Of a stretch of DNA of 64,000 nt, positions 16,385 through 43,854 are shown one piece after another. The translations under genes were made by a program, and so were the position numbers. The notes under the pieces were generated by a model that saw only the letters and a list, made by a program, of their open reading frames with translations, did no database searches and was not told the DNA's origin. Source of the DNA: Acidimicrobiales bacterium (lineage in GTDB: Bacteria > Actinomycetota > Acidimicrobiia > Acidimicrobiales > CADCSY01); NCBI GenBank assembly GCA_030446545.1, contig JAUJNB010000001.1, positions 280,885 to 344,884 on the forward strand, given 5' to 3'. Numbering within the stretch: position 1 is the first letter of the stretch; each line of letters opens with the position of its first letter.

Positions 16385-16816
16385 TCACGTCTCACCCTGG
16401 TCCACGCCCCGCACGCTGCGGGCCGAGCCCTGGCCCGTGACCGTGACCTGGGCCAACCCCCCGATGCCGAGGATCTGGAGGGGCTGTTCGACGGTGACGG
16501 TGACGGTGACGGCGTCACCGGTGACGACCACCGTTCCGGGCCGGCCCAGCAGGGCCAGGTGGGCAGTGGCCGCAGCTTGCGCCTGGGCCGCATCGAGCTC
16601 CTGGTCACCCGAAGACCGGAGACGGTCGATGGACACGGCCTGGGCGCCGGCTCGGGCCGCCGACTCGGCTTCGTTGTCGGCCTGGCGCTTGGCCGCCAGC
16701 AGGGTGCCCCCGTCGAGGACGAGGCCCACGACGAAGATGAGGGCGACGGTGAAGATGGTGACGAAGGCCGTCACCTGCCCAGCTTCGCCACGACGCCCGG
16801 TCCAGGGGCCCCTCAC
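16385..16816 (-). CDS. TadE/TadG-like pilus assembly (pseudopilin-like) protein
   Basis: GTG at 16816 overlaps the upstream stop (GTGA). Reads VRGPWTGRRGEAGQVTAFVTIFTVALIFVVGLVLDGG, a TadE/G N-terminal hydrophobic segment. Confidence 0.7.
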   Translation of the reverse strand: MRGPWTGRRGEAGQVTAFVTIFTVALIFVVGLVLDGGTLLAAKRQADNEAESAARAGAQAVSIDRLRSSGDQELDAAQAQAAATAHLALLGRPGTVVVTGDAVTVTVTVEQPLQILGIGGLAQVTVTGQGSARSVRGVDQGET

Positions 16817-17241
16817 GAGTCGAGCCCCCGGAACTGGTCCACCACTTCCACCGCTCCGGCGGAGAGGGTCTGGCTGCCCGGAAGCGGGAGGGGGGACAGG
16901 TCGCTCAGGTCGACGTCGCAGCTGACCTCCACCGACACGGTCCCGCCCCGTCGGAAGGCGTCGATGTCGGTGGTGACGATCACCGAGGCGCAACTGAACC
17001 CCTGGTCGGCCAACGTCGCCTGGGCCGCCGCCTGGGCCGCCGGGCCGGCGGCCACGGCGCTGCGTTGGATGGAGGCGGCCCGAGCGGCGTCACGGGCGGC
17101 CCCGACCAGGTCCCCCCGGGCCCCGGCCAGGCGACCGGCCAGGGTGGCGAAGACCAGCAACAGCAACAGCAACGGGGTCACCAGCACCAGCTCGGTGGCT
17201 GCGGCCCCCCGCTCAGCGCGCACCCGGGAGATGGGGGTCAC
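16813..17241 (-). CDS. TadE-like protein
   Basis: GTG at 17241 overlaps the upstream stop (GTGA). Reads VTPISRVRAERGAAATELVLVTPLLLLLLVFATLAG, the TadE motif (ERG..xxE + hydrophobic helix). Confidence 0.75.
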   Translation of the reverse strand: MTPISRVRAERGAAATELVLVTPLLLLLLVFATLAGRLAGARGDLVGAARDAARAASIQRSAVAAGPAAQAAAQATLADQGFSCASVIVTTDIDAFRRGGTVSVEVSCDVDLSDLSPLPLPGSQTLSAGAVEVVDQFRGLDS

Positions 17242-17636
17242 GGCGCCCGGAACTCCTCCACCGGGCCCTCGGACTCGGCCGAGATCGGCAGCCGGATGCC
17301 CGGGACGACCTGGATGGCCCGGCCATTGACCTCCACCCGGGCCACCCCAGCCGGGTCGCGGGTGGCCGTGACCGTGCGCTCGAGCACCAGGGCCTGGCCC
17401 ACGGCGTCGAGGAACGCCTCGGCCCGGGCCTTTCCCGCAGGGGCGCTCGACCCCTCGACCCGTGCCGCCCGAGCCCCTTCCTGGGCGGCCGCCGACGCCA
17501 CGTGCGAGGCGTGGAACCACAGGCCGAACTGCACCACCAGGAGCACCATGAACAGCATGACCGGCGTGACCAACACCAGCTCCGCCGTGGCCGCGCCCCG
17601 CTCGCCCTTGCCCCGTCCTCCGGTCACCCTCGGCAC
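17238..17636 (-). CDS. TadE-like protein
   Basis: 132-aa ORF reading GERGAATAELVLVTPVMLFMVLLVVQFGLWFHA. Confidence 0.8.
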   Translation of the reverse strand: MPRVTGGRGKGERGAATAELVLVTPVMLFMVLLVVQFGLWFHASHVASAAAQEGARAARVEGSSAPAGKARAEAFLDAVGQALVLERTVTATRDPAGVARVEVNGRAIQVVPGIRLPISAESEGPVEEFRAP

Positions 17637-17665
17637 CGAACCACAGCCCCTTTGGGCCGTGACCC

Positions 17666-25730: not shown

Positions 25731-26237
25731 TCAGCTCATGACGGTGACCGGCACGGCGTAGAACATCACCAGGGCGAGAGCCACGTCGACGGCGTCGACC
25801 GTCTCGGCCATCTTGTTCGACCCCAAAACCCCCCCGAGGCTGGCTACCGGCGTGCGGTCCTCCCTTTCCAGCATCTCACGAGCGAAGCCGATCCTTCGAT
25901 AGAGGTAAGAACGGGGCCCAAGTCGGATCACGATCCCCCGGCGACGACGGCTGAGAAGGGCCGAGTCCGGTTGTACCGCCTCACCGCCGAGCGTTGCCAC
26001 CGACAACGCCACCGGGTCGACAAAGGACGTGTGTCGCCTGCCGTCGAGCCTTCCGAAGGGACCGAACTCGATGCTGGCGTCGGGCAGGTGGGGACCCCAA
26101 GCCCGGGTCCCCAGCCGGTGATCGGTGAAGCCCACCCAGGCTGGCCCGTACGGCCCCTCCTATCGAGTACGCACCTCCACACCCTCCGGGGAAGCCGGGC
26201 CATGCCCCGAGGGGTCACTGACGGTGAAGGTGGTCAA
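25731..26237 (-). pseudogene. multicopy ~170-aa family, copy with in-frame TAG
   Basis: TTG at 26237 gives LTTFTVSDPSGHGPASPEGVEVRTR, then TAG at 26160-26162 exactly where paralogs have the Tyr of Y-E-G-P-H/Y-G-P. It continues EGPYGPAWVGFTD..RAWGPHLP..GRLDGRRHTSFVD..LSRRRRGIVI..RSYLYR..VALALVMFYAVPV. Confidence 0.6.
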
Positions 26238-26246
26238 AGGCCGCCT

Positions 26247-26780
26247 CTACGCCTGTGCCCTGATGGCGCTGTCGGGTACGCCATAGAACATCACCAGGGC
26301 GAGGGCCACGTCGACGTCATCTGCCTCCTCAGCCACCTGATGGGGCGCTCTCACGCCTCCGAAACTGACCACCGGAGTGCGGTCGTCGCGCTCCAGCAGA
26401 GGGCTGGAGATGCCGGCGATGCGGTAGAGGTATAACCGGGGCCCAAGATCGATCTTGATACCCCGACGGCGGCGATTGAACAGGGCCCAGTTCGGTTGCA
26501 CGGCATTCCCCGACAGCTCTCCCACGCCGAGGGCTACTGGATCCACGAACGACGTATGTCGCTGGCCGTCCAGTCGCCCCGAAGGGCCGAAGTCGAAGCG
26601 GGCGTCCGGAACAAGGGGACCCCACGCCTGAGTGACCTGGTCATTGTTCGTGTAGGCCGCGAAGACGGGTCCGTGGGGCCCGTCGTAGTAGCTGTGGGCG
26701 ACGGCACCCGGTGGAGCACCAGGTGCGTCGCCGGAGGCGTCTCCGAGCCTGAAGGTGATCATGGGCGGCTTCGCTCTCAC
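26247..26780 (-). CDS. multicopy ~170-aa family protein, copy 4
   Basis: GTG at 26780 overlaps the upstream stop (GTGA). VRAKPPMITFRL..YYDGPHGPVFAA..QAWGPLVP..GRLDGQRHTSFVD..FNRRRRGIKI..RLYLYR..VDVALALVMFYGVPDSAIRAQA. Confidence 0.7.
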   Translation of the reverse strand: MRAKPPMITFRLGDASGDAPGAPPGAVAHSYYDGPHGPVFAAYTNNDQVTQAWGPLVPDARFDFGPSGRLDGQRHTSFVDPVALGVGELSGNAVQPNWALFNRRRRGIKIDLGPRLYLYRIAGISSPLLERDDRTPVVSFGGVRAPHQVAEEADDVDVALALVMFYGVPDSAIRAQA

Positions 26781-27217
26781 GTCGGCTTCGCCGCCGACGT
26801 CTCGGGAGGGAGGGCGATCTGGACCAGGTACGCGTCCCCCCCGGTGACCACGAAGCCCCCGGGCCCGAGACTGATTCTGATGCCCCGACGGCAGCAGTTG
26901 AACAGTGCCCAGCTCGGTTGCACCGCGTTCCCCGAGAGCTCTCCCACGCTGACGGCCACCGGATCCAGGAACGACGTATGTCGCCGCCCGTCCAGTCGCC
27001 CGGAAGGGCCGAAGTCGAGGCGGGCATCGGAGACATGGGGACCCCAGGCCCGAGTGACCTGGTCACCGTCGGTGTAGGCCGCGAGGACGGGCCCGTGCGG
27101 CCCTTCGTAGTGGCCACGGGTCACTACCCCCTGCGGCGAGGGAGGTGCGTCATCGGCCGCATCTCGGAGGGTGGCGGTCTTTGTCAGCACTTCGGCGTCA
27201 CGTCGGCTCACCGCCAA
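26777..27217 (-). CDS. chimeric ORF: N-terminal ~105 aa of the ~170-aa family fused to an essC-like 3' tail
   Basis: HYEGPHGPVLAA..RAWGPHVS..GRLDGRRHTSFLD..FNCCRRGIRI is followed by SLGPGGFVVTGGDAYLVQIALPPETSAAKPT*. That tail parallels the frame-corrected end of the 33846..38090 gene (PGRGFLVAG..EAALVQVALPPEVPGPPAV*). The DNA shares CTGGTCCAG(A/G)TCGCCCT..CCCGAG. Confidence 0.55.
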   Translation of the reverse strand: MAVSRRDAEVLTKTATLRDAADDAPPSPQGVVTRGHYEGPHGPVLAAYTDGDQVTRAWGPHVSDARLDFGPSGRLDGRRHTSFLDPVAVSVGELSGNAVQPSWALFNCCRRGIRISLGPGGFVVTGGDAYLVQIALPPETSAAKPT

Positions 27218-27312
27218 TGTCCTGGGAGCTCGACGGCTACCTCCAAGTGCCCGGCAGAGATCAGCTCGACGGCGTCAGGATCCATGGACACCGACGTCAT
27301 GGCCACCAGTAT
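27208..27312 (-). pseudogene. orphan 5' fragment of the effector family (start codon mutated ATG to ATA)
   Basis: The minus strand reads I-LVAMTSVSMDPDAVELISAGHLEVAVELPGHWR*, compared with MLVAMTSVFMDPDAVELLSARLSDIAVDLG in 24731..25684. Confidence 0.55.
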
Positions 27313-27483
27313 GGCGCCGCTGCACGTTTCCATACGCCTGCGCCTTGATGGCGCTGATCGGCCCCGTAGGGCTCGGCTGACCGTGACAGCGGTCCCTACC
27401 TGTATCGGTACCGATCCGCTCTTTTGTGGTGCTACGTTTCGCGTGTGCCGTCGCCGGGTGAGCTACGGGAAGAAGCCGCCGGC

Positions 27484-27804
27484 ATGGAGGGAGCGGCATC
27501 CCACAAGGAGGAGGTGGCCTACGAGCTGCGTCGCCAGGCCGCCCTGCTCCCCGAGGGCACGGATCGGGTGGACGGGACGATCACGCCCGCACTGTGGGAG
27601 GGCCGGGCGGCAGAGGCCGCCGACGATGCGCTGGCGAGCAGCGTCCGGTGGATTCGTCAGGCCGCCGAGGATCTGGAGGAGATCGCCGCCGAGCTCGAGG
27701 ACGAGGCCCACGGTCTTCGTCAGGACGCGGCCGACGCCGGCCGACAGGCCGACGACCTTCAAGCCGAGCTGGACGCCGAGGCCGACGCCGGTGCCGTCGC
27801 CTGA
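27484..27804 (+). CDS. small WXG-type / T7SS-signal-like helical protein (orphan, opposite strand)
   Basis: ATG at 27484 inside ORF 27424..27804, preceded by GGGAAGAAG. Reads MEGAASHKEEVAYELRRQAALLPEG..ITPALWEGRAAEAADDAL..EDLEEIAAELEDEA, with an acidic Ala/Asp tail. The W-x-G + AA pattern resembles the N-domain of the 14184..15915 toxin. Confidence 0.5.
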   Translation: MEGAASHKEEVAYELRRQAALLPEGTDRVDGTITPALWEGRAAEAADDALASSVRWIRQAAEDLEEIAAELEDEAHGLRQDAADAGRQADDLQAELDAEADAGAVA

Positions 27805-27899
27805 ACCCTCGGCCCGCCCCGGCCTTTCGCCAAGGGGTCCCTCCCCATGGGCACATGCCTGCGACTCCAGGGCCGACCGGTCGTCAGGGTTGCCCAGCG

Positions 27900-32515: not shown

Positions 32516-32849
32516 CGCCCTCGAGCTCGAGGCGACGCCGCTCCTGTTCCTCCTCCAGCTGCTCCTGGCGCTCCCGGCGCCGCTCCTCGTCCTCCGCCAG
32601 CGCGTCGGCCAGGGCCTGGCGGATGGCGTCGGCGGTCTCCTCGAGGTTGCCGGCCTCGGTGCGCAGGATCTGGGCCAGGTCGTCGGCGTTGGCGTCGAAG
32701 CCCAGGCGAGACGCTCCCGACCACGCCCCCAGCTGGCCGGCGGAGGCCTGCACCAGCCGCTGGGCGGCGGCGTCGAGGTCCGACGCTGCCGTCATGCAGG
32801 CCTCGATGGCCTGACGGGCGGTGGCCTCATCGAAGTCGACGAGCTCCAT
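32500..32849 (-). CDS. small WXG-like helical protein; 3' end ambiguous
   Basis: ATG at 32849 inside ORF 32238..33059. Reads MELVDFDEATARQAIEACMTAASDLDAAAQRLVQASAGQLGAWSGASRLGFD (W-x-G), followed by a charged coiled-coil tail. As assembled the frame runs on over the next gene. A 1-nt shift in the GGGGG/CCCC run gives a TGA at 32500-32502 overlapping a GTG (GTGA). Confidence 0.5.
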
Positions 32850-32904
32850 CTCATCCCCTCTTCTTCCGACAGAGGACCACAGCCAACAGCGCGATGGTAG
32901 TGCG

Positions 32905-33782
32905 TCAACCCCGGCGCCAACGCCGCTTCCATCGAGGGGTGTCGTCGCCGAGGGACAGGAGCTGGCGGGCGGCGGCCAGGATCTCCTGGTCGCCCAGTCG
33001 CTGCAGGACGGCGCCAGGCTCGGCGCCCCGCCGGCCCTGGAACAGCCACAGCCCGTCATCGGCGCCGTAGGCGGTGACGGCCTGCTCCTTCCCGCCGCCG
33101 GCGGTGATCCCGGCGGCGGCCATCACCGTGGTGGAGCGGGCCCGGCGGGCCAACTCCGCCACCCGGGGGCGACCTCCTCGACGGTGGCCGCCACCTCGGG
33201 GGCGACGGTGGTGGTGGAGCGGCCGGTGGGGTCGAGCATGGCCGCCAGCCACGCCGCCTGGCGCTCCTGGGTGCGCAGGACCATCTCGTGCAGTCCCGAC
33301 TCGGCGGAGATGTCGTCGTGTAGGGCTAGGCCGTGGGGAACCACGAACGCTCCCCCGATCGCCGTACCCTCGTCGACCACGTCGGTGCGCCAGGTCACCA
33401 GGGCCGAGGCCTGCTGGACCGCCCACACCAAGGTGGCATGGGGTTGTTCGAACACCGGGCCGCCGTCGTCGCCGAAGCTCAACTGCCCCCGGGACAACAG
33501 CAGGCGGACACAGGCCTGCTTGGCGATGTCGGCCTCCTCGGCGGCCAGTGCGCTCAGGTGCGCCGTCCAGTGGGGGTCGCCCGTCGAGTCGGGGTCGTCG
33601 CCGCACAGGACCACCTCCTCGTCGGTGAAGGTGCCCACCACGATGTCGTGGGCGCGGGCCACCTCGGCCAGGCGTCCCTTGGCCAGGTCGGTGCTGGTCA
33701 GGGACAGGTCCAGGGGAGCGGGGCGGTGGAGGTCGGGGTTGGTCGCCACCACCGGATGGTAGTGAAGGCCCCCACCAGCCAT
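32905..33782 (-). CDS. unknown-domain protein (paralog of the N-half of 29704..30983), one apparent frameshift near 33165-33185
   Basis: ORF 33123..33821 reads ..DLSLTSTDLAKGRLAEVARAHDIVVGTFTDEEVVLCGDDPDSTGDPHW..GLALHDDISAESGLHEMVLR. It continues in the frame of ORF 32905..34185: ..AVTAYGADDGLWLFQGRRGAEPGAVLQRLGDQEILAAARQLLSLG. The start may be 33782 or 33821. Confidence 0.5.
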
Positions 33783-33845
33783 GCCGGCCAACCAGGGTCT
33801 TGCCCGCACCAGAGAGTCCACCGGCTCGGCGTGGAGAACGGCCGC

Positions 33846-36800
33846 TCAAACGGCCGGCGGCCCCGGCACCTCGGGGGCAGGGCGACCTGGACCAGGGCTG
33901 CCTCTCCCCGGCCACGAGAAAGCCCCGTCCCGGCACAAGGGCGACGGGGACTCGACGGGGCAGGCGTTGGCCCAGGAGCTCGCCGTCGGCGGACAGGTTG
34001 GGTTGGAGCAGGATGCCCGTGCGCGACTGGCGCAGGCCCTGGTCCAGTGCCCGTAGGCCGCCCGTAGATCGTCGCTGCGCCCGGCGGCCACCACGTGCAG
34101 GCCCGGCCGGCGTGACTGCAGGAGCGTCCCCAGCAGGCCGTCGACGTCGTCCACCTGGGGGGCGTCGTCGACGAAGACGAACCACCGACGACCGTCACCC
34201 GGGGCCACCCGGATGACCTGGGCCAACTGCGACAGGGTCCCGGCGGCGTCGAGCGCCTCCAGGGGATGCAGCGACGAGCGATCGTCACAGACCCCCACCA
34301 GCACGGTGGCCGGGTCGGCCCGGCGCACCAGGCTGGCCATCAGGGCCAGCGTGGAGGTCTTGCCACTGCGGGGCGGCCCGGCCACCAGCACGTGGTCACC
34401 GGCGTGCAGGGTCAGCACCGCCGGGCCGAGGTCGTCGTCGGCGATCCCGACCGTGAGCTCCACCGGCGCAGGCTCCAGCTTGGCCCCGCCCGGCAGCTCG
34501 TGGAAGGCCAAGGAAGGCGGGAGCCCCCGGATGACGGCCGGAGGCGGGCGCCGCCCGGCACCCGTTCCCCGCAGGAGGGGCGACAGGTCACCGGGATGGC
34601 CCACCTGCATCACCAGCTTGGTGGGCCCGTGGACGGCCCGGCCGGGGACGAAGGCCGGCAGTCGCTTCGGTCGCAGCCCGATGGCGGAGAAGTCGGCCGG
34701 GTCCGCCAGTCGGAAGAGGATCTTCTGGCTGACCAGGGCGGCCATGCGCGCCGGGAGCGATCCGGGACGCTCGCCGGCGACCACGAACAGGATGTCCACC
34801 TCGGGCCCGTCGGCGAACACCCGCCGGAAGGCCTCGGCCGTCTCGGTGCTTTCGATTCCCTCATGTTCGGCCACAAAGGCGCCGATGCCGTCGATGAGCA
34901 CGACGACGCGGGCCTCCCCCGCCCGGTCGCTCGGGCTCAGGGCGCGCCGACGGTCGAGCTCGCGACGCAGGTAGCGAACCAGCCGGAGCTGACCCTCGTG
35001 ATCTCCGGCGGGCACGACCGCCCCGACGTCGTCATGGGCCACCAGGGGGGCCAGGCCTCCCGCCCCGAAGTCGACGGCGTAGACGTGCCAGGGCCGGTCC
35101 TCGCACCGATGGAGCAGCGAGCGGGCCACCGCCAGCAGGGCCGTGGTCGTGCCGCCGCCCACCATCCCGAAAAGGGCCAGGTGCCCGTCGGCCGGGTTCC
35201 ACCCCACCACTGCCTGACGCTGGTGCTCCGGGTCGTCGGCCAGAGCGAAAGGCACGGTCCCGACGTCGGCCTCGAGCAAGAGGATGTCGTCCAACTCGAT
35301 TCGGTCGCTCAGCATCTCGAGCCACGGCCGCCGAGGTGGTGGCGCCTGGCCCCGTTCGAAGGCGGACACCACGGCGTCGACCAGGCGGGCCAGGTCGCTG
35401 GGCCCGTTACCGGGCTCGGGCCCGGTCGCGGGCGACGAGGGAAGGGAGCCGAAGCCAAAGGGGCTCAGGCGCAGGGCGGTCGTCCGCCGGGCCTGGCGGG
35501 TGGCGGTGGCCAAGGCCGTCTGTACCAACTCGACATCGGTCGGGCCCGACCGGACGTAGGCCCTGCCGGGGTTCGACCGGGCAATGGCGGCCGCATCCTT
35601 GCGGTCGATGATGTCGGAGGAGTCGCCGGCGTCCTGGACACGAAGGGCGATGCGCAGGTTGGTGTTGGCCTTGATGTTGCCGTTCACCGCTCCCGACGGC
35701 CGCTGGGTGGCGAGCACCAGGTGCACTCCGAGGCTGCGGCCCCGCTGCGCCACCCCGACCAGGGCGCCCAGGAACTCGGGAAGTTCGCTGGCCAGGGTGG
35801 CGAACTCGTCGACCACCACCACCAACCGGGGCAACGGACCCGAGGGCGAGCCGCTGCGCAGGTAGCTGGCCTGGTCCTGGGCGGCCGACACCCGCAGCAC
35901 GCGTTCTCGATGGGCCAGCTCGGCCTCCAGCGAGGTGAGGGCCCGCTCCCCGAGGTGTTCGTCGAGGTCGGTGACCAGCCCGACGACGTGGGGCAGACGG
36001 GCGCACTGGTCGAAGGCGCTGCCCCCCTTGTAGTCGACGAGGACGAACACCAGGTGGTCGGGGTCCACCCGGGCCGCCAGGCCGGCGACCAGAGAGCGCA
36101 GCAGCTCGCTCTTCCCCGACCCGGTGGTGCCGCCCACCAGGGCATGGGGCCCGTCGCGCACCAGGTCGATGTCGACCATCCCGCGCTCGCCCATGCCGAT
36201 GGGCGTGCGCAGGGGCGGGTCGGGCAGGCCCCGGGACCACGCCCGGGCCACGACGTCGGGGTCGACGTCGTCCATCTCGAGCAGGGGCAGCAGCCGCACC
36301 AGCTTGGGCAGGCCGCTCCCGAGCACCTCCAGCTCGGAGTCCTCGTAGCGGGCCAGGGCCCGGGCGGTGGCCCGAGCGGTGGCGTCGTCGACCCCTCCGA
36401 TCAGAAAGGCGTCGATGCGCACCCGGTCCCGGGGCCGACGGAGGTCGGCATCGCCCAGGGGCCGGAGGTCGACCACCACGGTGCACATGGCCGGCAACTG
36501 GTCCTCGCTCGGGGCCAACACCACCCCCGCCACCGGCCCGGCCGCACCGTTGAGCACCAGGCGGGCCGGGGCCCGCCGACCCTCGACGAGCGCCACGTCG
36601 TCGACCACCACCAGTCGGGTGCGGCCTCCGCTGGTGTCGGCCGGACGCGACCGCAGGCGCGAGCCCGGTCCGCCCTCGTCCCCGGAGGAGGCCAGCAGCT
36701 CGCTCAGCAGCGCCTCGCAGGCCGGGCGGTCACCCGCCAGCAACCGGGACGACCCGTCCACATGGCGGGTGTGGGGCAGCCACTTGGCCCAGTCCCAGTC

Positions 36801-38090
36801 GGAGGTATGCCCGCCGGAGGCCAAAACCACCACGGCCAGGTCGGCCGGCCCGTGATGCACCGCCGCCTGGCACACCAGGGACCGGGCCAGCGCCAGGCCG
36901 GCGGCCCGGTCCCCGACCAGTCCCACCACCCCCCCGGACGAGAGGTCGACCTCGACGGGAGCGTCGTGGAGCAGGGTGAAGCGGGCCATCACCCGGCCCA
37001 CCTCTTCGTCCATCTCGTCGCGAGGTCCCTCGACGGGCGGTGACCAGGGGACGGGGCCGGTCCCGGCGCGCAAGGCGAGGAAATCGTCGTGGACGGGACG
37101 ACGCTGCCAGAGCGTGGTACTCGGTGCGTGGGCCCGGCGCAGCGTCTCGGCGATGTCGACCAACCGTTCCTCGCCGCGCCGGACCTCGGCCGCGGCGGCG
37201 GCTCGCAGGGCCTGGTCGAAGGCCTCGAGGGCAGCTCGGAAATCCCGGCCTCTCGCCTTGTTCTCCTTGGTCGTCCGACGCCGGGACGACACGTAGTTGC
37301 CGATCATCATGATCGGGCTGAGCAGCATGAACAGGGCGAATCGGGGATCACGGTAGAAGTAGATGAGCGCTCCGCCCATCAACAGCGGGGCCACAACCGT
37401 GATCACGCTGAAAGCCCGGCTACGGCCGGAGCCCCGGGGCGGTTCCGGCGCTTTGATCGGCGGCGGTCCCTCAGCCGGCGCCGGGCGGGGCGGTCGGTTG
37501 AACGGGACGAGCCCGCCCACGGCCCGGTGCAGCGGGTCGATGGCCAGCGGCCGGTCGTCGGGGAGGCGCAGGCGCAGGCGCGCCTGGGTGGCGCCGAAAC
37601 GCACCAGGGCGCCCGGAGGCACGGGCGTGGGCCCGAGCACCGGGTGCCCGTCGATCCAGGTGCCGTTGTGTGACTCGAGATCGGTCACCACCACCGAGCC
37701 GTCGGGGACGACGTGGAGGCGGGCGTGGTGGGCCGAGAGGGTGGAGTCGGCCAGCGCCACCTCGCACGCCGGCGAGCGGCCCACCACCACCTCGCCGGGG
37801 CCGAGAGGGTGGGCCGATCCCGCCCCACGGCCGCCGACGAACATCAGGGTGGGGCCCTCGCCGGCGACTCGGGCCACGGGGGCCTTGCCGGCCACGTGCA
37901 CCATCGCCCCCTCGTGCAGGCCGATCTCGTCCAACCCGGCGTCGGCGCCGAAGTACCGCTCGGCGATGACCACCCCGGCTCCAGGGGCGGCGCCGATGGC
38001 GGCCACGAGGTCGGACACGCACGCCTGCGGGTGTTCGATGTCGAGGTCGAGCTCCTGCTCGGCCCCGTCGTGCACGACGACGATCTGCAC
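33846..38090 (-). CDS. FHA-domain FtsK/SpoIIIE-family triple ATPase (EssC/EccC-type T7SS-like coupling ATPase)
   Basis: 1414-aa ORF with a GTG start 12 nt after the tadA stop. FHA-like core: VVVGRSPACEVALADSTLSAHHARLHV..LESHNGTWIDG. Two TM helices: AFSVITVVAPLLMGGALIYFY and FALFMLLSPIMMIGNYV. Three P-loops: GGTTGSGKSELLRSLV, degenerate GMVGGGTTTALLAVA, and GPPRSGKTSTLALMA. The last ~70 codons as assembled look like off-frame junk. The expected ..LRQSRTGILLQPNLSADGELLGQRLP..PGRGFLVAG.. and ..EAALVQVALPP.. lie in the other two frames, implying about 3 single-nt indels near 34040, 33905 and 33875. Confidence 0.85.
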   Translation of the reverse strand: MQIVVVHDGAEQELDLDIEHPQACVSDLVAAIGAAPGAGVVIAERYFGADAGLDEIGLHEGAMVHVAGKAPVARVAGEGPTLMFVGGRGAGSAHPLGPGEVVVGRSPACEVALADSTLSAHHARLHVVPDGSVVVTDLESHNGTWIDGHPVLGPTPVPPGALVRFGATQARLRLRLPDDRPLAIDPLHRAVGGLVPFNRPPRPAPAEGPPPIKAPEPPRGSGRSRAFSVITVVAPLLMGGALIYFYRDPRFALFMLLSPIMMIGNYVSSRRRTTKENKARGRDFRAALEAFDQALRAAAAAEVRRGEERLVDIAETLRRAHAPSTTLWQRRPVHDDFLALRAGTGPVPWSPPVEGPRDEMDEEVGRVMARFTLLHDAPVEVDLSSGGVVGLVGDRAAGLALARSLVCQAAVHHGPADLAVVVLASGGHTSDWDWAKWLPHTRHVDGSSRLLAGDRPACEALLSELLASSGDEGGPGSRLRSRPADTSGGRTRLVVVDDVALVEGRRAPARLVLNGAAGPVAGVVLAPSEDQLPAMCTVVVDLRPLGDADLRRPRDRVRIDAFLIGGVDDATARATARALARYEDSELEVLGSGLPKLVRLLPLLEMDDVDPDVVARAWSRGLPDPPLRTPIGMGERGMVDIDLVRDGPHALVGGTTGSGKSELLRSLVAGLAARVDPDHLVFVLVDYKGGSAFDQCARLPHVVGLVTDLDEHLGERALTSLEAELAHRERVLRVSAAQDQASYLRSGSPSGPLPRLVVVVDEFATLASELPEFLGALVGVAQRGRSLGVHLVLATQRPSGAVNGNIKANTNLRIALRVQDAGDSSDIIDRKDAAAIARSNPGRAYVRSGPTDVELVQTALATATRQARRTTALRLSPFGFGSLPSSPATGPEPGNGPSDLARLVDAVVSAFERGQAPPPRRPWLEMLSDRIELDDILLLEADVGTVPFALADDPEHQRQAVVGWNPADGHLALFGMVGGGTTTALLAVARSLLHRCEDRPWHVYAVDFGAGGLAPLVAHDDVGAVVPAGDHEGQLRLVRYLRRELDRRRALSPSDRAGEARVVVLIDGIGAFVAEHEGIESTETAEAFRRVFADGPEVDILFVVAGERPGSLPARMAALVSQKILFRLADPADFSAIGLRPKRLPAFVPGRAVHGPTKLVMQVGHPGDLSPLLRGTGAGRRPPPAVIRGLPPSLAFHELPGGAKLEPAPVELTVGIADDDLGPAVLTLHAGDHVLVAGPPRSGKTSTLALMASLVRRADPATVLVGVCDDRSSLHPLEALDAAGTLSQLAQVIRVAPGDGRRWFVFVDDAPQVDDVDGLLGTLLQSRRPGLHVVAAGRSDDLRAAYGHWTRACASRARASCSNPTCPPTASSWANACPVESPSPLCRDGAFSWPGRGSPGPGRPAPEVPGPPAV

Positions 38091-38102: not shown

Positions 38103-39476
38103 TCAGCCCCGGTAGGGCGACGAGGGGCGGGCGGCGCCTGCGGTCCCGGCCTGGTCCCACCATCCCTGGGGTCGGCTCAACACCGAGGGGTCGAAGCCGG
38201 CCTCTTCCAGGTCGGCCTGGGTGCGGCTGCGCAGGGGCGCCCCGGGGACGGCCCGGCGATCCGGTCCCGGCTCGAACACCTCGTTGGAGATCACCATGGA
38301 GCCTTCGGCCCCCACCACCTCCCGGATCGAGGAGATGTAGCGACCGAACCGGCGCTCGTGGGTGTCGCGCCCGACGTAGACGACGAAGTCGAGGGCATTG
38401 GCCACGATGAGGTTGGTGGCCTCCAGCGGGAGGCGCTCGGGCGCCTGCACCGCGTACATGGCCAGCTTGCCAAAGGCGCCGGCCGAGGAGTTGGCGTGGA
38501 TGGTGCACATCGAGCCGTCGTTGCCCTGGCTCATGGCGTTGAGCATGGGCAGCACCTCGTCGCCCCGCACCTCACCGACGATGACCCGGTCGGGGTCCAT
38601 GCGCAGGCCCCACCGCACGAGCGCGGCCAGGGTGATGGCTCCCTCGCCCTCCACGTTGTGCTCGCGGGCCTCGAGGGCCACCACGTCGGGGTGGAGCTCG
38701 GGATAGCGGTCGACACCGAGCTCGAGGTTGTCCTCGATGGTGACCAGGCGCTCGTCGGGGTCGATCTCGTTGATGAGGGCCCGCAACAGGGTGGTCTTGC
38801 CGGCGTCGACCCCCCCGCAGACGATGATGTTCTTGCGGGCCCGCACGGCTGCGGCCAGGAACTCCTGCAGGGCGAGGTCGATGGTGCCCAGGCCGACCAG
38901 GTCTTCGAGGAACAGCTTGGGATAGCGGTGGCGGCGGATGGCCACGCACGGGTGCGACGTCACCGCCATCACCGCGAACAGGCGGCTCCCGTCGGGCAGC
39001 TGCACGCTCAGTCGAGGAGCGCCGACATCGAAGCGCCGCTCGGTCAGGCCCACCCGGGCCGCCGTCATCCGCAGCGTCTCGATCAGCTCCTCGTCGCTGT
39101 CGGCGATGGCCGGCCCGAGCTCCTTGGTGCCGTCGGCCCGGGTGATCCACACCTCGGCCGCGCCGTTGATGTTGATGTTCTCGATGGTCTCGTCCTCGAG
39201 CAGCCGCTGCAGGGTGCCGAGGCCGAAGAGGGCGTCGTGGACGGCCTGGGCCAGCGACATCTCCTCCTCGGCGGAGAGGGGGACACGCCCCTCCTCGAGC
39301 TCCTCGCGGGCGAAGACGGCCAGCCGCTCGTTGATGAGCTGGCGCCCGAACAGGCGCTGGTCGACCTGGCTCAGCCGGGCGCGGCTGGAGGCGGTGTCCT
39401 CACGCAGCCGGTCGGTCAACTTGTCGGCCACCTCCTGGCGGAAGCGGCGGACGAGCACCTGGTCAGCGCGGTCCAT
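38103..39476 (-). CDS. tadA: CpaF/TadA-family type II/IV secretion ATPase
   Basis: ATG at 39476 (MDRADQVLVRRFRQEV) inside ORF 38103..40130. Walker A is VCGGVDAGKTTLLRAL. Also shows RVIVGEVRGDEV and MSQGNDGSMCTIHANS. Confidence 0.9.
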   Translation of the reverse strand: MDRADQVLVRRFRQEVADKLTDRLREDTASSRARLSQVDQRLFGRQLINERLAVFAREELEEGRVPLSAEEEMSLAQAVHDALFGLGTLQRLLEDETIENININGAAEVWITRADGTKELGPAIADSDEELIETLRMTAARVGLTERRFDVGAPRLSVQLPDGSRLFAVMAVTSHPCVAIRRHRYPKLFLEDLVGLGTIDLALQEFLAAAVRARKNIIVCGGVDAGKTTLLRALINEIDPDERLVTIEDNLELGVDRYPELHPDVVALEAREHNVEGEGAITLAALVRWGLRMDPDRVIVGEVRGDEVLPMLNAMSQGNDGSMCTIHANSSAGAFGKLAMYAVQAPERLPLEATNLIVANALDFVVYVGRDTHERRFGRYISSIREVVGAEGSMVISNEVFEPGPDRRAVPGAPLRSRTQADLEEAGFDPSVLSRPQGWWDQAGTAGAARPSSPYRG

Positions 39477-40623
39477 CGGGGTTCTCCTCGTCTGGGGGAT
39501 CGGGAGGGGGGCCCGACGACGGTGGGTCCGCCTCGGACAGGTGGGGACGGGCCTGGAGGGGCCGGGCCCGCGCCGTGCGACGAGGCCGCTCGGTCGGGGG
39601 CTGGCGAGGTCGGGGAGGCTCCGAGGATCTCGCCGGTGTGGGGGCCGGCGCCACCGTGGTGGCCAGGTCGGCCAGCGATCGCCACGGCGCCACCGGCTCG
39701 GCCGGGGCGCCCGAGGGCGCCAGGGCGGGCACCGGCGGCTCGGGATCCGGCTCCAGCTGTCGCGACCAGGGCCGGGCCGGCGGTGGCGGGGGAGGCGGCG
39801 GCGATGGCGCCTGCTCACGCCCCGCCAGGGGTGGTGGGTGCCGGAGCTGCTCGGGCTCCGGGTCGGGCCAGGTGGCCACCGAGGACCGCCCGTCGGCGCT
39901 CCCGGACCCCATTCGGGCCGACAGCTGCTCGGCCAGGGTACGGGCCGTGCGCAGGAGACCCGAGGCCCGCAGCACCCGCGACCGGCCGTGGTCGCCGCCG
40001 GACAGCAGCTCGGCGGCCCGGGCGTCGTCGGCGATGGTCCCGAGGGGCTGGGCCCCGACCGCCCGGCCGGCCTCGACCACGCCGTAGGGGCGGTCGCCGA
40101 CCAGCAGCAACGCCGTCGCCACCCCGGCACCGAGGGCCTGCACCCGCGCCGCCAGGTGGTGCAGCTGGGAGACCTGTGGCCGGGCCACCAGGATCATCAG
40201 CTCCGCCGCCCGCACCATGGCCATGACCGGCGACGCCGGGTCGAGCCGCCCGCAGTCGGCCAGCACGTCGATGCCGTCGAGCCCGGCCAGCAGGTTGGCC
40301 AGCCGAGAGCTCAGGGCCGACAGGGCGGCGGTGGACTGCTCGGCCGAGGCCGGGCCGGCCAGGACCTGGACTGCGTCGGAACCGGGCAGGGGCTGCGTCT
40401 GTTGCCACAGCATCTCCGGCGTCAGCTCTCGGCGGCCCTCGGCCGCCAACCGCACCAGGCCCCGCTCGACGTCCAAGCCCAGGCGAGGAGCCAGGTCGCC
40501 GCCGGCCGGGTCGGCCTCCACCACCAGGAGGCGCCGGTCGCCGGGCCAGCGGGCGGCCAGAGCGGCCACCGCCGTGGTCACGCCCGGCGAACCCTTGGCC
40601 GAGCCCAGTGCGACCAGCGTCAC
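39463..40623 (-). CDS. ParA/MinD-like ATPase-fold protein (TadZ/CpaE- or Ssd-like) with Pro-rich tail
   Basis: GTG at 40623 overlaps the upstream stop (GTGA). VTLVALGSAKGSPGVTTAVAALAA is a deviant P-loop region. The C-terminal ~130 aa are rich in Pro, Ala and Glu. Confidence 0.65.
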   Translation of the reverse strand: MTLVALGSAKGSPGVTTAVAALAARWPGDRRLLVVEADPAGGDLAPRLGLDVERGLVRLAAEGRRELTPEMLWQQTQPLPGSDAVQVLAGPASAEQSTAALSALSSRLANLLAGLDGIDVLADCGRLDPASPVMAMVRAAELMILVARPQVSQLHHLAARVQALGAGVATALLLVGDRPYGVVEAGRAVGAQPLGTIADDARAAELLSGGDHGRSRVLRASGLLRTARTLAEQLSARMGSGSADGRSSVATWPDPEPEQLRHPPPLAGREQAPSPPPPPPPPARPWSRQLEPDPEPPVPALAPSGAPAEPVAPWRSLADLATTVAPAPTPARSSEPPRPRQPPTERPRRTARARPLQARPHLSEADPPSSGPPPDPPDEENPDGPR

Positions 40624-41339
40624 CGGTCGGGCACCAGGACCAGGCTGACCCGGCCCTCGGCCGATGCCCCGGCGATGTCGGGCGCCCCTTCCCGGGGCAC
40701 GGCGAGGGACACCACCGCGGTGGACCCGTCGACCAGCTCGTCGCTGGCGAACACCCGGGCCTCGGCCAACACCCGCCCGAGGGAGCCCGGTGCCACGCTG
40801 CCGGCCGGGCGACCCGCTCCCCCGTCGAGATCGGCGGGGGCCGACGACGAGGCGTTGAGCACCACCAGCACCTGGTCGCCGGGCTGGAGCCGGCCCGAGG
40901 GCAACTGCTCGCGCGGCACGGGCACGCCCACCACCACGTCGCCCTCGGCCAGGAGCGACGCGTCCCCCCACTGACCCTGGGTCAGCAGCGCGCCCGGTAC
41001 CAGATCGACGGCGGCCGACTGGCCGATGACCGCAGCCCGCCGGTCGGCACCGACCGGCCGCAGGCCGGGGTCGGCGGAGACCCGCACCACCGCGAGGTCG
41101 GCAGCCTCGATGAGCTGACCCTCCGGCACCGGCCGGGCCACCGCCAGCACGGGCTCGCGCCCGCCGGCGTTCACCCACAACAGAGCGAAGGCCAGAGCCG
41201 AGCCGATGGTGACGAGGATCGACACCAGGGCGAGCGACCAGCGTCGCTGACGGGTCGGGCCCGAAGGCACCCGAGGGGGTCGGTCGGGGCCACGGGGCGC
41301 CGGGGCGGCCCGACGAGTCGGTGCGCTGGTGCTCGCCAT
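40620..41339 (-). CDS. SAF-domain / CpaB-like Flp pilus assembly protein
   Basis: ATG at 41339 (MASTSAPTRR..). Has one TM segment (WSLALVSILVTIGSALAFALLWV), then PVLAVARPVPEGQLIEAADLAVVRV (SAF-like). Confidence 0.65.
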   Translation of the reverse strand: MASTSAPTRRAAPAPRGPDRPPRVPSGPTRQRRWSLALVSILVTIGSALAFALLWVNAGGREPVLAVARPVPEGQLIEAADLAVVRVSADPGLRPVGADRRAAVIGQSAAVDLVPGALLTQGQWGDASLLAEGDVVVGVPVPREQLPSGRLQPGDQVLVVLNASSSAPADLDGGAGRPAGSVAPGSLGRVLAEARVFASDELVDGSTAVVSLAVPREGAPDIAGASAEGRVSLVLVPDR

Positions 41340-41346
41340 GTCGCTC

Positions 41347-42306
41347 CTAGTCGTCTTCGGTGGAGGAGTCGGGGGAGGTGGGGCGTCCCGCCCCGTCGTC
41401 GGGGCTGCCCGTCGCCAGGAGGGACTCGCCTCGGCCCGGGTCGTCGCTCTGGGGGCCGAGGGGCACCATGACCTCCATCCGGTCTCCGTCCCCGCCGTCG
41501 GACACCACCAGGGTGCCACCGGCCGTGCCGTCGGACGGGAGTGGCCTCATCGACTCCGTGGCCGGGCCCGGCGACGAAGCCACCCCGGCCACCGTCGCCC
41601 CCTCCCCCGGGCCGAGGCCGACGGCGTCGTCGGGCAGGCGCAGCGTCCACCCCGGGTAGATCCGGTCGGGGTCGGCCATGGTGGCGCCGTCGGGCTGCTC
41701 GCGTCCCTGGTTCAGCTCCCAGATCTCCACCCACCGGAAGGGATCGCGCAAGCACGTCTCGGCGATCCCCCACAACGTGTCGCGCTGCTGCACCACGTAG
41801 GTCGGTTGGGCGTCCGCGCCTGCCAGGTCGGTGAGCTCGGCCCCGCTGGCCACCACCCCGGCCGTGGCCGCCGGCATCGGCACGGGCACGGCCTGCACGG
41901 TGCGATCGGGCCGGGTGAGCAGAAGGATGACCATCAGCGAGACAGCGGCGACCAGCCGGGCCACGAGCCGCTGGACCGGGCCGGTGAGCGGGACCCGCCC
42001 GGCCTGGCGCCCGCGCACGACGGCGACCACCTCCACCAGCAGCGACGCCACCAGTTCGACCCACACGATCCAACACACCACCGCCAGCGCCTTGGCCAGG
42101 AAGGTGTCAGGGATGTAGCTGTCGCCCAGCGCAGTGGTGACCTGCGACCAGCTGGGGATGGCCGACGGCAGGGGCCAGCCGACGAAGGTCGACAAGGCCC
42201 AGGGCACCCCGCCCACCAGGGCGGCGATGGCCACCGCCCCCAGTGCGCCGCGCGCCAGGTCGGGACCTCGGGGAATGGCCTGTGTCGCTACCGGTCCCGT
42301 CACCAT
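41347..42306 (-). CDS. membrane protein with LysM peptidoglycan-binding domain
   Basis: 319-aa ORF with several N-terminal TM segments. The LysM-like segment reads YVVQQRDTLWGIAETCLRDPFRWVEIWELN..IYPGWTLRLP. Confidence 0.7.
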   Translation of the reverse strand: MVTGPVATQAIPRGPDLARGALGAVAIAALVGGVPWALSTFVGWPLPSAIPSWSQVTTALGDSYIPDTFLAKALAVVCWIVWVELVASLLVEVVAVVRGRQAGRVPLTGPVQRLVARLVAAVSLMVILLLTRPDRTVQAVPVPMPAATAGVVASGAELTDLAGADAQPTYVVQQRDTLWGIAETCLRDPFRWVEIWELNQGREQPDGATMADPDRIYPGWTLRLPDDAVGLGPGEGATVAGVASSPGPATESMRPLPSDGTAGGTLVVSDGGDGDRMEVMVPLGPQSDDPGRGESLLATGSPDDGAGRPTSPDSSTEDD

Positions 42307-42354
42307 GGTTGGCCTCCTTCTCCGTCTACCGGCGAGGTTCCGCCGGCCTGTCGC

Positions 42355-43854
42355 TCATGCCTCGTCGGTCTGGCTCTCGGTGGGAGCCGGGAGATCAGGT
42401 GGGACGACGGCGCCGCCCCGCAACACGATCTCCTGGCATCCGCCTTTCCCATCATCGCTCACTTCGGGGGAGGCGTCGCGCTGGTTGGTCTCCACCGCCG
42501 CCGCGCTGGGCAGCGGTTCGCCGGGTCGGGCCCAGGTGAGGAAGTAGAAGACCTGGCCGGTGGCCGGACGGTAGAGGCCCGGGGTGTCGGTCCCGTCACA
42601 GTCCCAGTCGCCGAGGAGGAAGGCGTCGTCGGGCTGGCCCAGCTGGAATCGCCGGGGCTGCGACTCGGCCGGGTCGACCACCGCCTCCACCACGTCTCCC
42701 TGGCGGACGACGAAGGTGTCACAGCCGTCGCCGTCGAGGTCCCCCTGGAGCAGGGCCGAGCCCTCAGGCCGCGATGGGGGCGCAAGGGCCGTACACGCCG
42801 GCGCCCGGACCCCGCCGGAGCCGGCCTCACCCGACAGCAGTGCTCGCAGGGGGCCAGCCAGGACGGTGAGCACGGCCAGCCCGGCCAGCACGCCGCCGAG
42901 CACCAACACCCGGGATCGGCGGCGGGACGGAGCCAGCGCCGGACGGGGTGGCCGAGGACCGAAGGTGCTGGTACCCCGGGCGCCGGCATCACCCCGGCCT
43001 GCGGGCCCGAGGGTGGCCGGCAGCACCGCAGCGGTGGCACCGAGCGACGCCCGAAGGTCCCGGGCCAGGTCGGCCGCGCCGGCGTAGCGGTCGGCCGGAC
43101 GCCGGGCCATGGCCCGCTCGACCACCGAGGCCAGGGCGTGGGGGACCTGGGGATCTGCTGTGAGCGGCGGGTGGCGGCCGCGGTCGGCGGCCCGAACCAC
43201 GGCCAACGGGGTCGTCCCGGCGAACGGCGGTCGCCCGGACAGCGCCTCGTAGCAGACGACGCCGAGGGAGTAGACGTCGCTCCGGACATCGGGATGGCCG
43301 CCGTCCAGGAGCTCCGGGGCCAGGTACTCAGCCGTCCCGGCCACCGACTCCTCGGCGGTGAGGGCCTGGGCGAAACGCCGGGCCACGCCGAAGTCCGACA
43401 GCAGGGGCTCCCCGTCGGAGGTGAACAAGATGTTGGCCGGCTTGACGTCGCAGTGCAGCACCTGGCGCCGATGAGCCGAGGCCAAGGCGTCGGCGATGGG
43501 GGCGGCCAGGGCCACCACCTCACCTGCGGCCAGTCGTGGGCGCCGGGCCAGGACGTCGGCCAGCGACCCTCCCGGTGCGTACTGCATCACCACGGCCAAG
43601 CCGTCGCCTTCGTCGATCACCTCGATCACCCGGACGATGTGTGGGTGATCGAGCTGGGTCAACACGGTCGCCTCGTCCCGCAGACGCTCCACCTCGCGCC
43701 CCTCCACACCGGGGCGCAGCCGCTTGAGCGCCACCACCTGGCTGACCGGACCAATCCGCCGGGCGCGCCACACCACTCCGGTCGAGCCTGAGCCCAACTC
43801 CTCCTCGAGCTGGTAGCTCCCGAACGTCTGCCGCCGAGCAGTGCCGTCGATCAC
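42355..43854 (-). CDS. transmembrane Ser/Thr protein kinase with FG-GAP/VCBS-like extracytoplasmic repeats
   Basis: GTG at 43854 inside ORF 42355..45087. Hanks motifs: GSGSTGVVW, VALKRL, HCDVKPANIL, DFG, TAEYLAPE. One TM segment (VLVLGGVLAGLAVLTVLAG). Extracytoplasmic part: GDLDGDGCDTFV and LGDWDCDGTDTPGLYRPATGQVFYF. Confidence 0.85.
   Translation of the reverse strand: MIDGTARRQTFGSYQLEEELGSGSTGVVWRARRIGPVSQVVALKRLRPGVEGREVERLRDEATVLTQLDHPHIVRVIEVIDEGDGLAVVMQYAPGGSLADVLARRPRLAAGEVVALAAPIADALASAHRRQVLHCDVKPANILFTSDGEPLLSDFGVARRFAQALTAEESVAGTAEYLAPELLDGGHPDVRSDVYSLGVVCYEALSGRPPFAGTTPLAVVRAADRGRHPPLTADPQVPHALASVVERAMARRPADRYAGAADLARDLRASLGATAAVLPATLGPAGRGDAGARGTSTFGPRPPRPALAPSRRRSRVLVLGGVLAGLAVLTVLAGPLRALLSGEAGSGGVRAPACTALAPPSRPEGSALLQGDLDGDGCDTFVVRQGDVVEAVVDPAESQPRRFQLGQPDDAFLLGDWDCDGTDTPGLYRPATGQVFYFLTWARPGEPLPSAAAVETNQRDASPEVSDDGKGGCQEIVLRGGAVVPPDLPAPTESQTDEA

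Follow-up and report, generated by a model that had tools for sequence, protein, structure and literature searches.

A Tad pilus operon interleaved with an EssC-like ATPase gene and toxin cassettes in an Acidimicrobiales bacterium

Gene content and order

We studied a 64 kb stretch of DNA (in the following: the window; G+C about 72%) from an Acidimicrobiales bacterium (contig JAUJNB010000001.1, positions 280,885 to 344,884), in which the genes of a tight adherence (Tad) pilus are interleaved with the gene of an EssC-like ATPase of the kind found in a type VII secretion system (T7SS) and with toxin cassettes. Because of the high G+C, genes were called by their GC content at third codon positions (GC3) and then checked with Pfam and NCBIfam. 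An earlier reading of the window, made from the sequence only, had described gene order and coordinates of the interleaving, and both are confirmed by Pfam, NCBIfam and homology searches. That is, the upstream half of the minus-strand run encodes a kinase, a LysM protein, CpaB, TadZ, TadA and an ATPase with one FHA and three FtsK-type domains (its gene is called essC in the following). The downstream half continues with about 13 kb of cargo genes, TadB, TadC, a 167-aa WXG-like protein (p167), Flp, TadE, a second TadE, TadG and a T7SS_signal toxin. The 12 nt between the tadA stop and the essC start as well as the 17.7 kb between tadA and tadB were also found as first reported.

The cluster covers about 30 kb (about 11.7-43.9 kb), and except for the ATPase every open reading frame (ORF) in it has at most 520 aa. 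It is flanked by housekeeping genes (Ppx/GppA, DUF501, dehydrogenases, homoserine dehydrogenase, threonine synthase), which near its distal end start at 10173-11183. The earlier description of nearly all genes as co-directional holds for the main run on the minus strand, which is interrupted by two plus-strand gene pairs (21461-23082 and 11682-13417).

A scan of all GC3-supported ORFs of the 64 kb agreed with the initial report that canonical T7SSa/T7SSb membrane components are missing, i.e., none encodes EccB, EccD, EccE, mycosin, EssA, EssB or EsaA, and neither an A24 prepilin peptidase (TadV/CpaA) nor an integrase or transposase is among them. The prepilin peptidase may be encoded elsewhere in the genome. 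Relaxase and com genes are likewise absent from the window. Rfam matches only two tRNAs (936-1020 and 48984-49058) and no other RNA, and neither tRNA adjoins the cluster. Repeat analysis found no repeats bracketing the 20.4-38.1 kb block and no att-like repeats.

The EssC-like ATPase

33846..38090, minus strand: EssC/EccC-like T7SS ATPase, 1414 aa (FHA and FtsK_SpoIIIE)

The protein is composed of a probable ubiquitin-like part (aa 1-78), an FHA domain (aa 101-166; Pfam E 1.3e-14), a transmembrane (TM) region (aa ~227-270) and three FtsK-type P-loop domains (FtsK_SpoIIIE, E 8.2e-37). Walker A motifs are located at residues 654 and 1238, i.e., in domains 1 and 3; for domain 2 no canonical one was detected. 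The best solved relatives are EccC of T. curvata (1.8e-69), YukB of B. subtilis (6e-61) and EccC5 (3.7e-54). Judged by this architecture, with its membrane anchor of two TM helices and its three P-loop domains, the ATPase is a genuine T7SS-type motor.

The scores stay below the curated NCBIfam cut-offs for EssC, EccCa and EccCb (TIGR03928, 484/778 bits; TIGR03924, 361/509; TIGR03925, 250/347), and we therefore treat the ATPase as homologous to these families and as a separate subfamily. This subfamily is widespread in Egibacteraceae, Acidimicrobiales and other metagenome-assembled genomes (MAGs) of Actinomycetota; the nearest named homologues come from Egibacteraceae and Acidimicrobiales MAGs.

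Within the FHA domain, the phosphothreonine-binding residues (GR...SxxH...NG) are conserved: in 16 homologues no exchange occurs at G104, R105, S119, H122, G143 and T144, and almost none at N142. For the N-terminal 78 residues (37857-38090), 2/13 homologues give a SAMP2 Pfam match (best E 2e-7), and a profile search of the PDB returned SAMP2 at E 0.012. These matches are suggestive of a fused ubiquitin-like beta-grasp domain.

The Tad pilus module

40620..41267, minus strand: CpaB/RcpC-like SAF-domain pilus assembly protein (ORF to 41519; start at ~41267 placed by the position of the TM helix)
39463..40623, minus strand: TadZ/Ssd-like ParA-type ATPase (weak BcsQ/ParA-type NCBIfam match, E 0.0013, and synteny)
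38103..39476, minus strand: TadA/CpaF secretion ATPase (T2SSE, E 3.7e-35)
19546..20388, minus strand: TadB-like inner-membrane platform protein with 4 TM helices (synteny, TM prediction, hhalign)
18634..19562, minus strand: TadC (T2SSF), split into an N-terminal half (19131-19562) and a C-terminal half (18634-19158; T2SSF E 8.4e-11)
17666..17884, minus strand: Flp-like prepilin (position; G/MTTE processing-like site, then a strongly hydrophobic helix)
17238-17636, minus strand: TadE, one of three pseudopilin genes (16385..17636)
16813 to about 17250, minus strand: second TadE
16385 to about 16830, minus strand: TadG-like (Tad, E 2e-9)

The window holds TadA, the TadB and TadC platform, Flp and the TadE/TadG pseudopilins. 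TadA shares 91% identity with its counterpart in L092, 85% in L093 and 78% in L094. It reaches 236 bits for TIGR03819, which is below cut-off; its best NCBIfam model is named 'TadA family conjugal transfer-associated ATPase', and its close homologues are called CpaF or TadA by their sources. CpaB scores 26.6 bits for SAF (cut-off 21) and 27.4 bits for RcpC (cut-off 28.8), with TIGR03177 at E 7.5e-10 below cut-off. The two TadE matches have E values of 1.3e-14 and 4.3e-8, and all three pseudopilins have orthologues in L094.

No Pfam match was obtained for TadZ, TadB and Flp. TadZ has GSAKGSPGVTT in its N-terminus and occupies the place that TadZ homologues have in every type I tad locus. TadB is 67% identical to the gene following tadA in L094 and 43-45% identical to TadB of Streptosporangiales and Streptomyces; hhalign relates it to the TadC profile at E 3.6e-4. 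Flp shows 55% identity to a 65-aa gene that follows tadC in L094.

The tadC gene named in the sequence-only reading is present, yet a frameshift of one base within a stretch of C (gatttcctcccctgttcacc) near 19160-19175 on the minus strand divides it. One added C restores ...DFLPLFTVGGGLVLGV..., which matches the intact TadC of L094, where the protein is a single 304-aa ORF; in Nonomuraea both halves are found in one frame. The frameshift is either a real pseudogene mutation or a homopolymer sequencing error.

Membrane kinase, LysM protein and WXG-like hairpin

42355..43854, minus strand: Ser/Thr protein kinase (Pkinase E 5.9e-47; PknB-type NCBIfam match)
41347..42306, minus strand: LysM-domain polytopic membrane protein with 3-4 TM helices (LysM E 3.2e-5; TM prediction)
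17964..18467, minus strand: p167, a 167-aa WXG-like two-helix hairpin between tadC and flp

In the kinase, the catalytic-type domain is N-terminal and is followed by a single TM helix (aa 316-334) and about 165 C-terminal residues predicted outside the cell. This topology is the same as that of EssB and TsdD. Since orthologues (42-59% identity) are also encoded beside the ATPase in L082, L084, L090 and L091, the kinase is a candidate for an EssB/TsdD-like partner of the ATPase.

The LysM protein comes after the kinase in L092, L093 and L094 and closes the tad operon in the Streptosporangiales loci. LysM-domain ORFs are further located 0.3-5 kb upstream of FHA-type ATPases in L021, L030, L036 and L037, all of which are without tad genes, and the LysM protein may thus belong to the T7SS module rather than to the Tad module; the matches in these four loci span just 70-115 residues, possibly no more than the LysM domain itself.

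For p167, a structure model predicts a hairpin of two helices (6-77 and 82-162; predicted local distance difference test score 80) with an invariant D-W-E-G at the turn. At 50% identity the family is small, with 108 clusters among 1.84 billion representatives and a length of 162-171 aa in nearly all of them, and p167 adjoins the ATPase in L001, L082/L083, L089 and L090. Neither a PF06013 match nor a profile relation to true WXG100 proteins was found, Pfam gives only a weak Apolipoprotein match, and a Foldseek search with the model returned generic coiled coils only. We therefore keep the original label WXG-like for motif and fold only, without Pfam support. The proteins of about 600-730 aa beside p167 in the relatives have no Pfam match; they contain one weakly hydrophobic segment at most, which makes a role as polytopic membrane component unlikely.

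The initial view that Tad is the only membrane machinery next to the ATPase is not supported, given the TM-anchored kinase kept in four relatives and the LysM protein. The ATPase does not stand without partners, as this kinase, the p167 hairpin and EspG-like proteins (see below) travel with it.

Gene order in close relatives

The tadA-essC junction is shared with L092, where kinase, LysM protein, CpaB, TadZ and TadA are followed by the same ATPase after a 14-nt gap. L094/L082 (ATPase 64%, TadA 78% identical to those of the window) starts with essC, p167 and a toxin gene, followed by kinase, LysM protein, CpaB, TadZ, TadA, TadB, TadC, Flp, two TadE and TadG, and ends with a toxin, EspG, a homologue of the 317-aa cargo protein p317b, the multicopy family and p168 (both listed below). 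Here, the tad run from kinase to TadG is uninterrupted and the whole forms one 30-kb cluster. As L094 carries the same families in a different order, the layout of the window is a rearrangement inside an already joint cluster: judged from the compared gene orders, this rearrangement placed essC and the variable region between tadA and tadB, and p167 between tadC and flp. The synteny comparison proposed with the sequence-only reading thus gives a divided picture, i.e., the tadA-essC junction is kept in L092, tadA and tadB are contiguous in L094, and the interleaving itself is local.

In L093, toxin and immunity genes follow tadA. A 64-aa ORF separates tadA from Imm35 and a Gln_amidase toxin domain encoded on the opposite strand (4881-6206). 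From this gene content, polymorphic toxin cassettes seem to be drawn to the site after tadA in this lineage.

In L084 and L091 (ATPase 61-62%), essC precedes an intact tad operon, the TadA of which shares no more than 30-32% identity with that of the window. Between the ATPase module and this type III tad operon, both have a small HTH_17 (excisionase/MerR-like) gene on the opposite strand (14908-15150 in L084, 15577-15810 in L091). L001, L089 and L090, which are members of the window's own ATPase clade (54-59%), keep essC together with p167 as well as a small WXG-like and a large, soluble, toxin-like protein. Beside none of the examined clade members did we see a canonical T7SS membrane core.

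Tad/ATPase linkage beyond the clade

A genome scan of 80 loci was based on generic Walker-region patterns and therefore sampled T7SS ATPases broadly, not close relatives; the following counts are among the matches listed. In 9 of about 54 actinobacterial loci, tad genes are found within 10 kb of an FHA-type ATPase, namely in Nonomuraea (two loci), Microbispora, Sphaerisporangium, Thermomonospora, Streptomyces yokosukanensis, Humibacillus, an Intrasporangiaceae MAG and an Actinomycetes MAG. In every one of these loci (9/9), tad genes and ATPase gene are divergently oriented. With a generous chance expectation of at most 2%, this corresponds to a binomial P of ~1e-6, a value that overstates independence because the loci are phylogenetically related.

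The ATPases of the nine loci form a clade separate from that of the window. Their TadA proteins fall into two lineages, one orthologous to the window's TadA (50-56% identity) and one not (~35%). Overall, the Tad/EssC linkage is seen in no fewer than four arrangements and extends over two clades of the ATPase and three lineages of TadA, and the involvement of three TadA lineages identifies it as recurrent. The Thermomonospora locus has a kinase gene and a true WXG100 gene within 5 kb of the ATPase. This locus (L043) also has a TetR gene (8796-9521) in the divergent gap between ATPase and tad genes; it and the HTH_17 genes of L084 and L091 are candidates for local regulators.

A plasmid search identified FHA-EssC homologues on Rothia plasmids and on pSCAT of S. 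cattleyicolor, and a metagenome scan with a single protein found only four distant, short loci.

Cargo block, toxin and duplications

33123..33821, minus strand: 232-aa soluble protein (p232), directly after the ATPase gene with a 24-nt gap
30980..33059, minus strand: run of small ORFs, p224/p273, p102, p118 and p62
29704..30909, minus strand: 401-aa protein; the C-terminal 140 aa are a paralogue of the EspG-like protein
20479-20997, 23411-23977, 25731-26135, 26247-26780, 26777-27217, 28403-29119 and 29171-29920, minus strand: seven paralogues of a ~170-aa family (within 20479..29920), 50-60% identical to the reference copy by alignment
27900..28406, minus strand: 168-aa protein (p168) with 2 TM helices, immunity-like (63% identity in L094)
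24731..25684, minus strand: 317-aa protein (p317b) with helical N-terminus and glycine-rich hydrophobic C-terminus
23926..24879, minus strand: EspG-like chaperone candidate (PF14011, E 7.6e-6)
21461..23082, plus strand: gene pair within the cargo block, paralogous to 11682-13417 (DNA identity up to 94%)
15922-16206, minus strand: small helical partner protein, 6 nt before the toxin gene
14353-15915, minus strand: T7SS_signal + DUF2515 toxin (PF21725, E 2.4e-13; PF10720, E 2.4e-6)
13621-14187, minus strand: 188-aa ORF, candidate immunity protein, at the distal cluster end
11682-13417, plus strand: gene pair at the distal cluster end

Most cargo ORFs are without a Pfam match, and the previously proposed 'DUF3093-like' gene was not reproduced by Pfam. 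The EspG-like call is kept as a candidate, since PF14011 reaches 26.1 bits and is just below its cut-off of 27; the L094 orthologue (66% identical) is flagged ESX-1_EspG (weak). Residues 256-396 of the 401-aa protein are 56% identical to this L094 gene (repeat families D4 and D6). p317b is kept beside the EspG-like gene in L094 (70%) as well as in Streptomyces L005 (41%), remnants of its N-terminus are located at 27227-27365 and 21358-21448, and p102 is homologous to its C-terminus. It is a candidate T7 substrate or toxin. All copies of the ~170-aa family match one L094 gene and 5/7 have a hydrophobic C-terminal tail; the structure model is all-beta and Foldseek gave no fold match. We consider them candidate immunity proteins or orphan modules.

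Among the small ORFs, p118 is immunity-like with 2 TM helices, and p224/p273 combines a helical N-terminus with GC3 phase breaks that suggest frameshifts. The 232-aa protein has no Pfam match, no TM helix and no homologue in the fetched loci. GC3 phase switches occur several times inside apparently single genes, i.e., at 31841-33821 (p232/p273/p224) and at 14240-14780 (3' part of the toxin gene), and hint at further frameshifts or overlapping genes; alternative frames of 31.8-33.8 kb are without Pfam match.

The two plus-strand pairs are homologous to genes for 192 and 214 aa that in L094 lie between the LysM gene and CpaB, co-directional with the tad genes. Segments of 92-94% identity (13000-13299 vs. 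22665-22964, 14306-14378 vs. 23254-23326) reveal a recent segmental duplication that joins the region downstream of the T7SS_signal toxin to the middle of the cargo block. From the second segment pair, the 3' end of the toxin gene seems to have an orphan copy near 23.3 kb. As the repeat analysis shows, the cargo has expanded by in-place duplication of p317b-like, EspG-like and multicopy modules, some of them truncated.

The sequence-only reading had considered a foreign effector island inserted into the tad operon. This view is abandoned given that no integrase, att-like repeat or adjacent tRNA is present, that the duplications are local and that the same cargo families are found elsewhere in the L094 cluster. 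The cargo is the usual variable toxin/immunity region downstream of essC and not an imported island. A mobile island was also tried as an explanation for the 13-kb cargo and was rejected given the lack of mobility genes and the repeats showing in-place duplication.

Comparison with known systems

For the T7SSd of Actinomycetota, an ATPase whose FHA domain retains its phosphothreonine site has been described, together with a kinase, TsdH, TsdI and a WXG100 protein (PMC11217815). The window shares with the T7SSd loci of Olsenella and Bifidobacterium the phylum, the FHA-ATPase, the membrane kinase, a small protein that is WXG-like by motif and fold, nearby polymorphic toxins and the lack of EccB/D/E and EssA/B. 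It differs in that, judged by their descriptions, neither a large, secreted TsdI-like Ig-domain protein with a C-terminal TM helix nor a recognisable small, single-TM TsdH is present, that its WXG-like protein has 167 aa and no PF06013 match, and that EspG-like genes and a Tad module are part of the cluster. Furthermore, its ATPase has a probable ubiquitin-like domain fused, whereas T7SSd is reported without any ubiquitin-like component, and with ~24-30% identity to the ATPases of the Coriobacteriia loci it forms a separate clade.

For Bacillota, T7SSg and T7SSh were reported to be always beside Tad genes, with the meaning left open (PMC11217815, Garrett et al. 2024), and T7SSf carries a TadZ-like ATPase (PMC11217815). 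As in the window, Tad genes accompany the T7SSg/T7SSh loci (Acetivibrio, Paenibacillus), reportedly always as a full set, and T7SSh also has an EspG-like protein. In contrast, they are known from few genera of Bacillota, their ATPases are without FHA, and Tad is adjacent rather than interleaved. A 2026 preprint places Esx under kinase/FHA control in oral Actinomycetales.

With T7SSb (EssC-EssB) of Firmicutes, the window has in common an N-terminal FHA, a single-pass partner with a cytoplasmic kinase fold, probably a ubiquitin-like component, and LXG-type toxins with small helical partners. However, there is one intact FHA instead of two degenerate ones, and the partner matches full-length active kinase families while EssB is a pseudokinase. 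Pfam matches to EssA, EssB, EsaA or EsaB are absent from the window; kinase and N-terminal ubiquitin-like domain are possible analogues only, of EssB and EsaB, respectively. By its gene content, the cluster appears to lie outside T7SSa and T7SSb and to fit T7SSd only partly.

The Tad side can be compared with the conserved actinobacterial tad-like locus, as in M. tuberculosis (Rv3654c-Rv3660c), whose order we take to be TadZ/Ssd, TadA, TadB, TadC, Flp, TadE-like. Unlike there, T7SS genes divide the operon of the window at two points, behind tadA and behind tadC, and CpaB, LysM protein and kinase are attached upstream. The window's TadA is of the same broad lineage as TadA of Streptosporangiales and Streptomyces (50-56% identity).

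In Micrococcus luteus, Mlut_07490 encodes an FtsK/SpoIIIE ATPase with two TM helices divergent from tad-1, and its re-introduced G327E variant cuts transformation at least 1000-fold (PMC8467076). The layout, i.e., an ATPase gene immediately next to tadA/cpaF and divergent from it, is as in L017 and the Streptosporangiales loci. The phenotype concerns natural transformation and not protein secretion, and Mlut_07490 is likened to the window's ATPase by description only.

The Kil Tad pilus of Myxococcus depends functionally on a needleless type III secretion system (T3SS*), and the Kil cluster is rich in FHA domains (PMC12075869, PMC8460266). There, too, a Tad pilus cooperates with a separate secretion apparatus, namely in contact-dependent killing, and FHA domains are prominent, pointing to control by phospho-signalling. 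In contrast to the window, the host is a diderm predator, the partner is T3SS-like, and it is KilF, the Tad ATPase, and not the secretion ATPase that carries the fused FHA domain. The parallel lies in function only and implies no homology of the coupling.

Our literature search found no paper that describes a linkage of Tad and FHA-EssC in Actinomycetota. The earlier remark that such a coupling was not known to have been described holds only in part, given T7SSg/T7SSh beside Tad and the M. luteus ATPase beside tad-1.

A probable functional link and its alternatives

We lean towards reading the locus as a composite cluster of Tad pilus, T7SSd-like system and toxins whose parts are functionally linked and which recurs in Actinomycetota. 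It builds on the observed gene content, the observed rearrangement relative to L094 and the observed recurrent linkage. More specifically, the cluster probably represents a T7SSd-like variant that is coupled to the Tad pilus by regulation or function for contact-dependent toxin delivery. Conservation of the Tad/EssC-like linkage far outside this genome speaks for a functional link, one of the two options initially offered, rather than for accident.

Three modules are combined: (a) the Tad pilus, i.e., CpaB, TadZ, TadA, TadB, TadC, Flp, two TadE and TadG; (b) a non-canonical T7SS closest to T7SSd, with its ATPase (ubiquitin-like, FHA, TM and three FtsK domains), kinase, LysM protein, p167 and candidate EspG-like chaperones; and (c) variable toxin/immunity cassettes. 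The ATPase would export p167-type hairpins together with N-terminally targeted toxins, and the kinase may gate it via phosphothreonine binding to the FHA domain. The Tad pilus would be co-expressed and could provide cell contact or wall passage for toxin delivery. By analogy, the composite would be a Gram-positive counterpart of the Myxococcus Kil-Tad with T3SS*.

Several results weigh against a functional link. Given the tadC frameshift, decay or a defect of the Tad module is possible in this strain. The plus-strand genes at 21461-23082 break any single transcript from essC to tadB, and promoter and terminator scans gave counts at chance level. L001, L089 and L090 have no tad genes within 10 kb even though they are in the window's own ATPase clade, and nearby tad genes are also lacking in L002, L003, the kinase-type loci of Micrococcales, the Rothia plasmid and pSCAT. 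The adjacency of Tad and ATPase is thus frequent and not obligatory, and the relatedness of the nine scanned loci noted above reduces the weight of their count.

Some of these points would suit accidental neighbours, i.e., two unrelated machines of which a recombination-prone T7SS toxin/immunity region landed in and disrupted a tad operon. GC and GC3 of the cargo are below those of essC and the upstream tad genes (kinase to tadA), tadC is frameshifted, several members of the ATPase clade are without nearby tad genes, and with Gln_amidase and Imm35 after tadA in L093 the junction may be a hot spot. We nevertheless regard mere neighbourhood as unlikely: four or more arrangements, involving three lineages of TadA and two clades of the ATPase, show the linkage, the tadA-essC junction (12-14-nt gap) is common to window and L092, a second T7 gene (p167) is separately placed between tadC and flp, and neither mobility genes nor bracketing repeats are present.

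A true hybrid would go beyond a functional link, with TadB/TadC, TadA and the pseudopilus in the export path of the ATPase, e.g., as a type II-like piston, and in place of EccB/D/E or EssA/B/EsaA. This would agree with the lack of a canonical T7SS membrane core in the 64 kb and beside the examined clade members, with T7 genes at two sites inside the tad operon, with the replacement of the adjacent tad by a non-orthologous one in other lineages and with the TadZ-like ATPase of T7SSf. Yet tad-less clade members keep essC, p167 and toxin as a compact module, kinase and LysM protein are alternative membrane partners, and tadC is broken in the window, such that we hold a hybrid to be quite improbable.

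Equally improbable to us is a role in DNA transfer, i.e., an FtsK-family DNA translocase working with a Tad competence or conjugation pilus instead of a protein exporter, as suggested by the transformation defect of the M. luteus point mutant and by the conjugal-transfer name of the best TadA model, because the ATPase has T7SS-motor architecture (two TM helices, three P-loop domains), EccC, YukB and EccC5 as best solved relatives, and WXG-like, EspG-like and T7SS_signal toxin genes as neighbours in a window without relaxase and com genes.

Returning to the functional link, a stronger version would make Tad an obligatory part of FHA-EssC delivery in many monoderm Actinomycetota, either as piston or conduit through the wall or as contact trigger via kinase and FHA. 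We consider this version doubtful. If true, pilus and ATPase would form one functional nanomachine and a previously unrecognised T7SS-Tad class, as the Gram-positive counterpart of Kil-Tad with T3SS*. The locus touches on two questions, namely how T7SS substrates pass the thick Gram-positive wall to reach target cells and what forms the channel of non-canonical T7SS variants. A motor of T7SS-like type, found repeatedly next to Tad genes, is a testable candidate for the missing envelope-spanning or contact-sensing part. In addition, the co-location of T7SS and Tad, so far noted in few genera of Bacillota, is extended to several orders of Actinomycetota and tied to a proposed control by a Ser/Thr kinase and FHA. 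It may also explain the role of the FtsK-family ATPase beside tad-1 in a Tad-dependent process of Micrococcus luteus.

Finally, 2.5-5.6 kb from the cluster's kinase gene, the region 46320-49495 encodes a CHASE3-HAMP-PP2C (SpoIIE) phosphatase, an anti-sigma-type HATPase protein and a lone response regulator. PPM phosphatases occur in T7SSc and T7SSe, and a link of this phosphatase to the cluster is conceivable.

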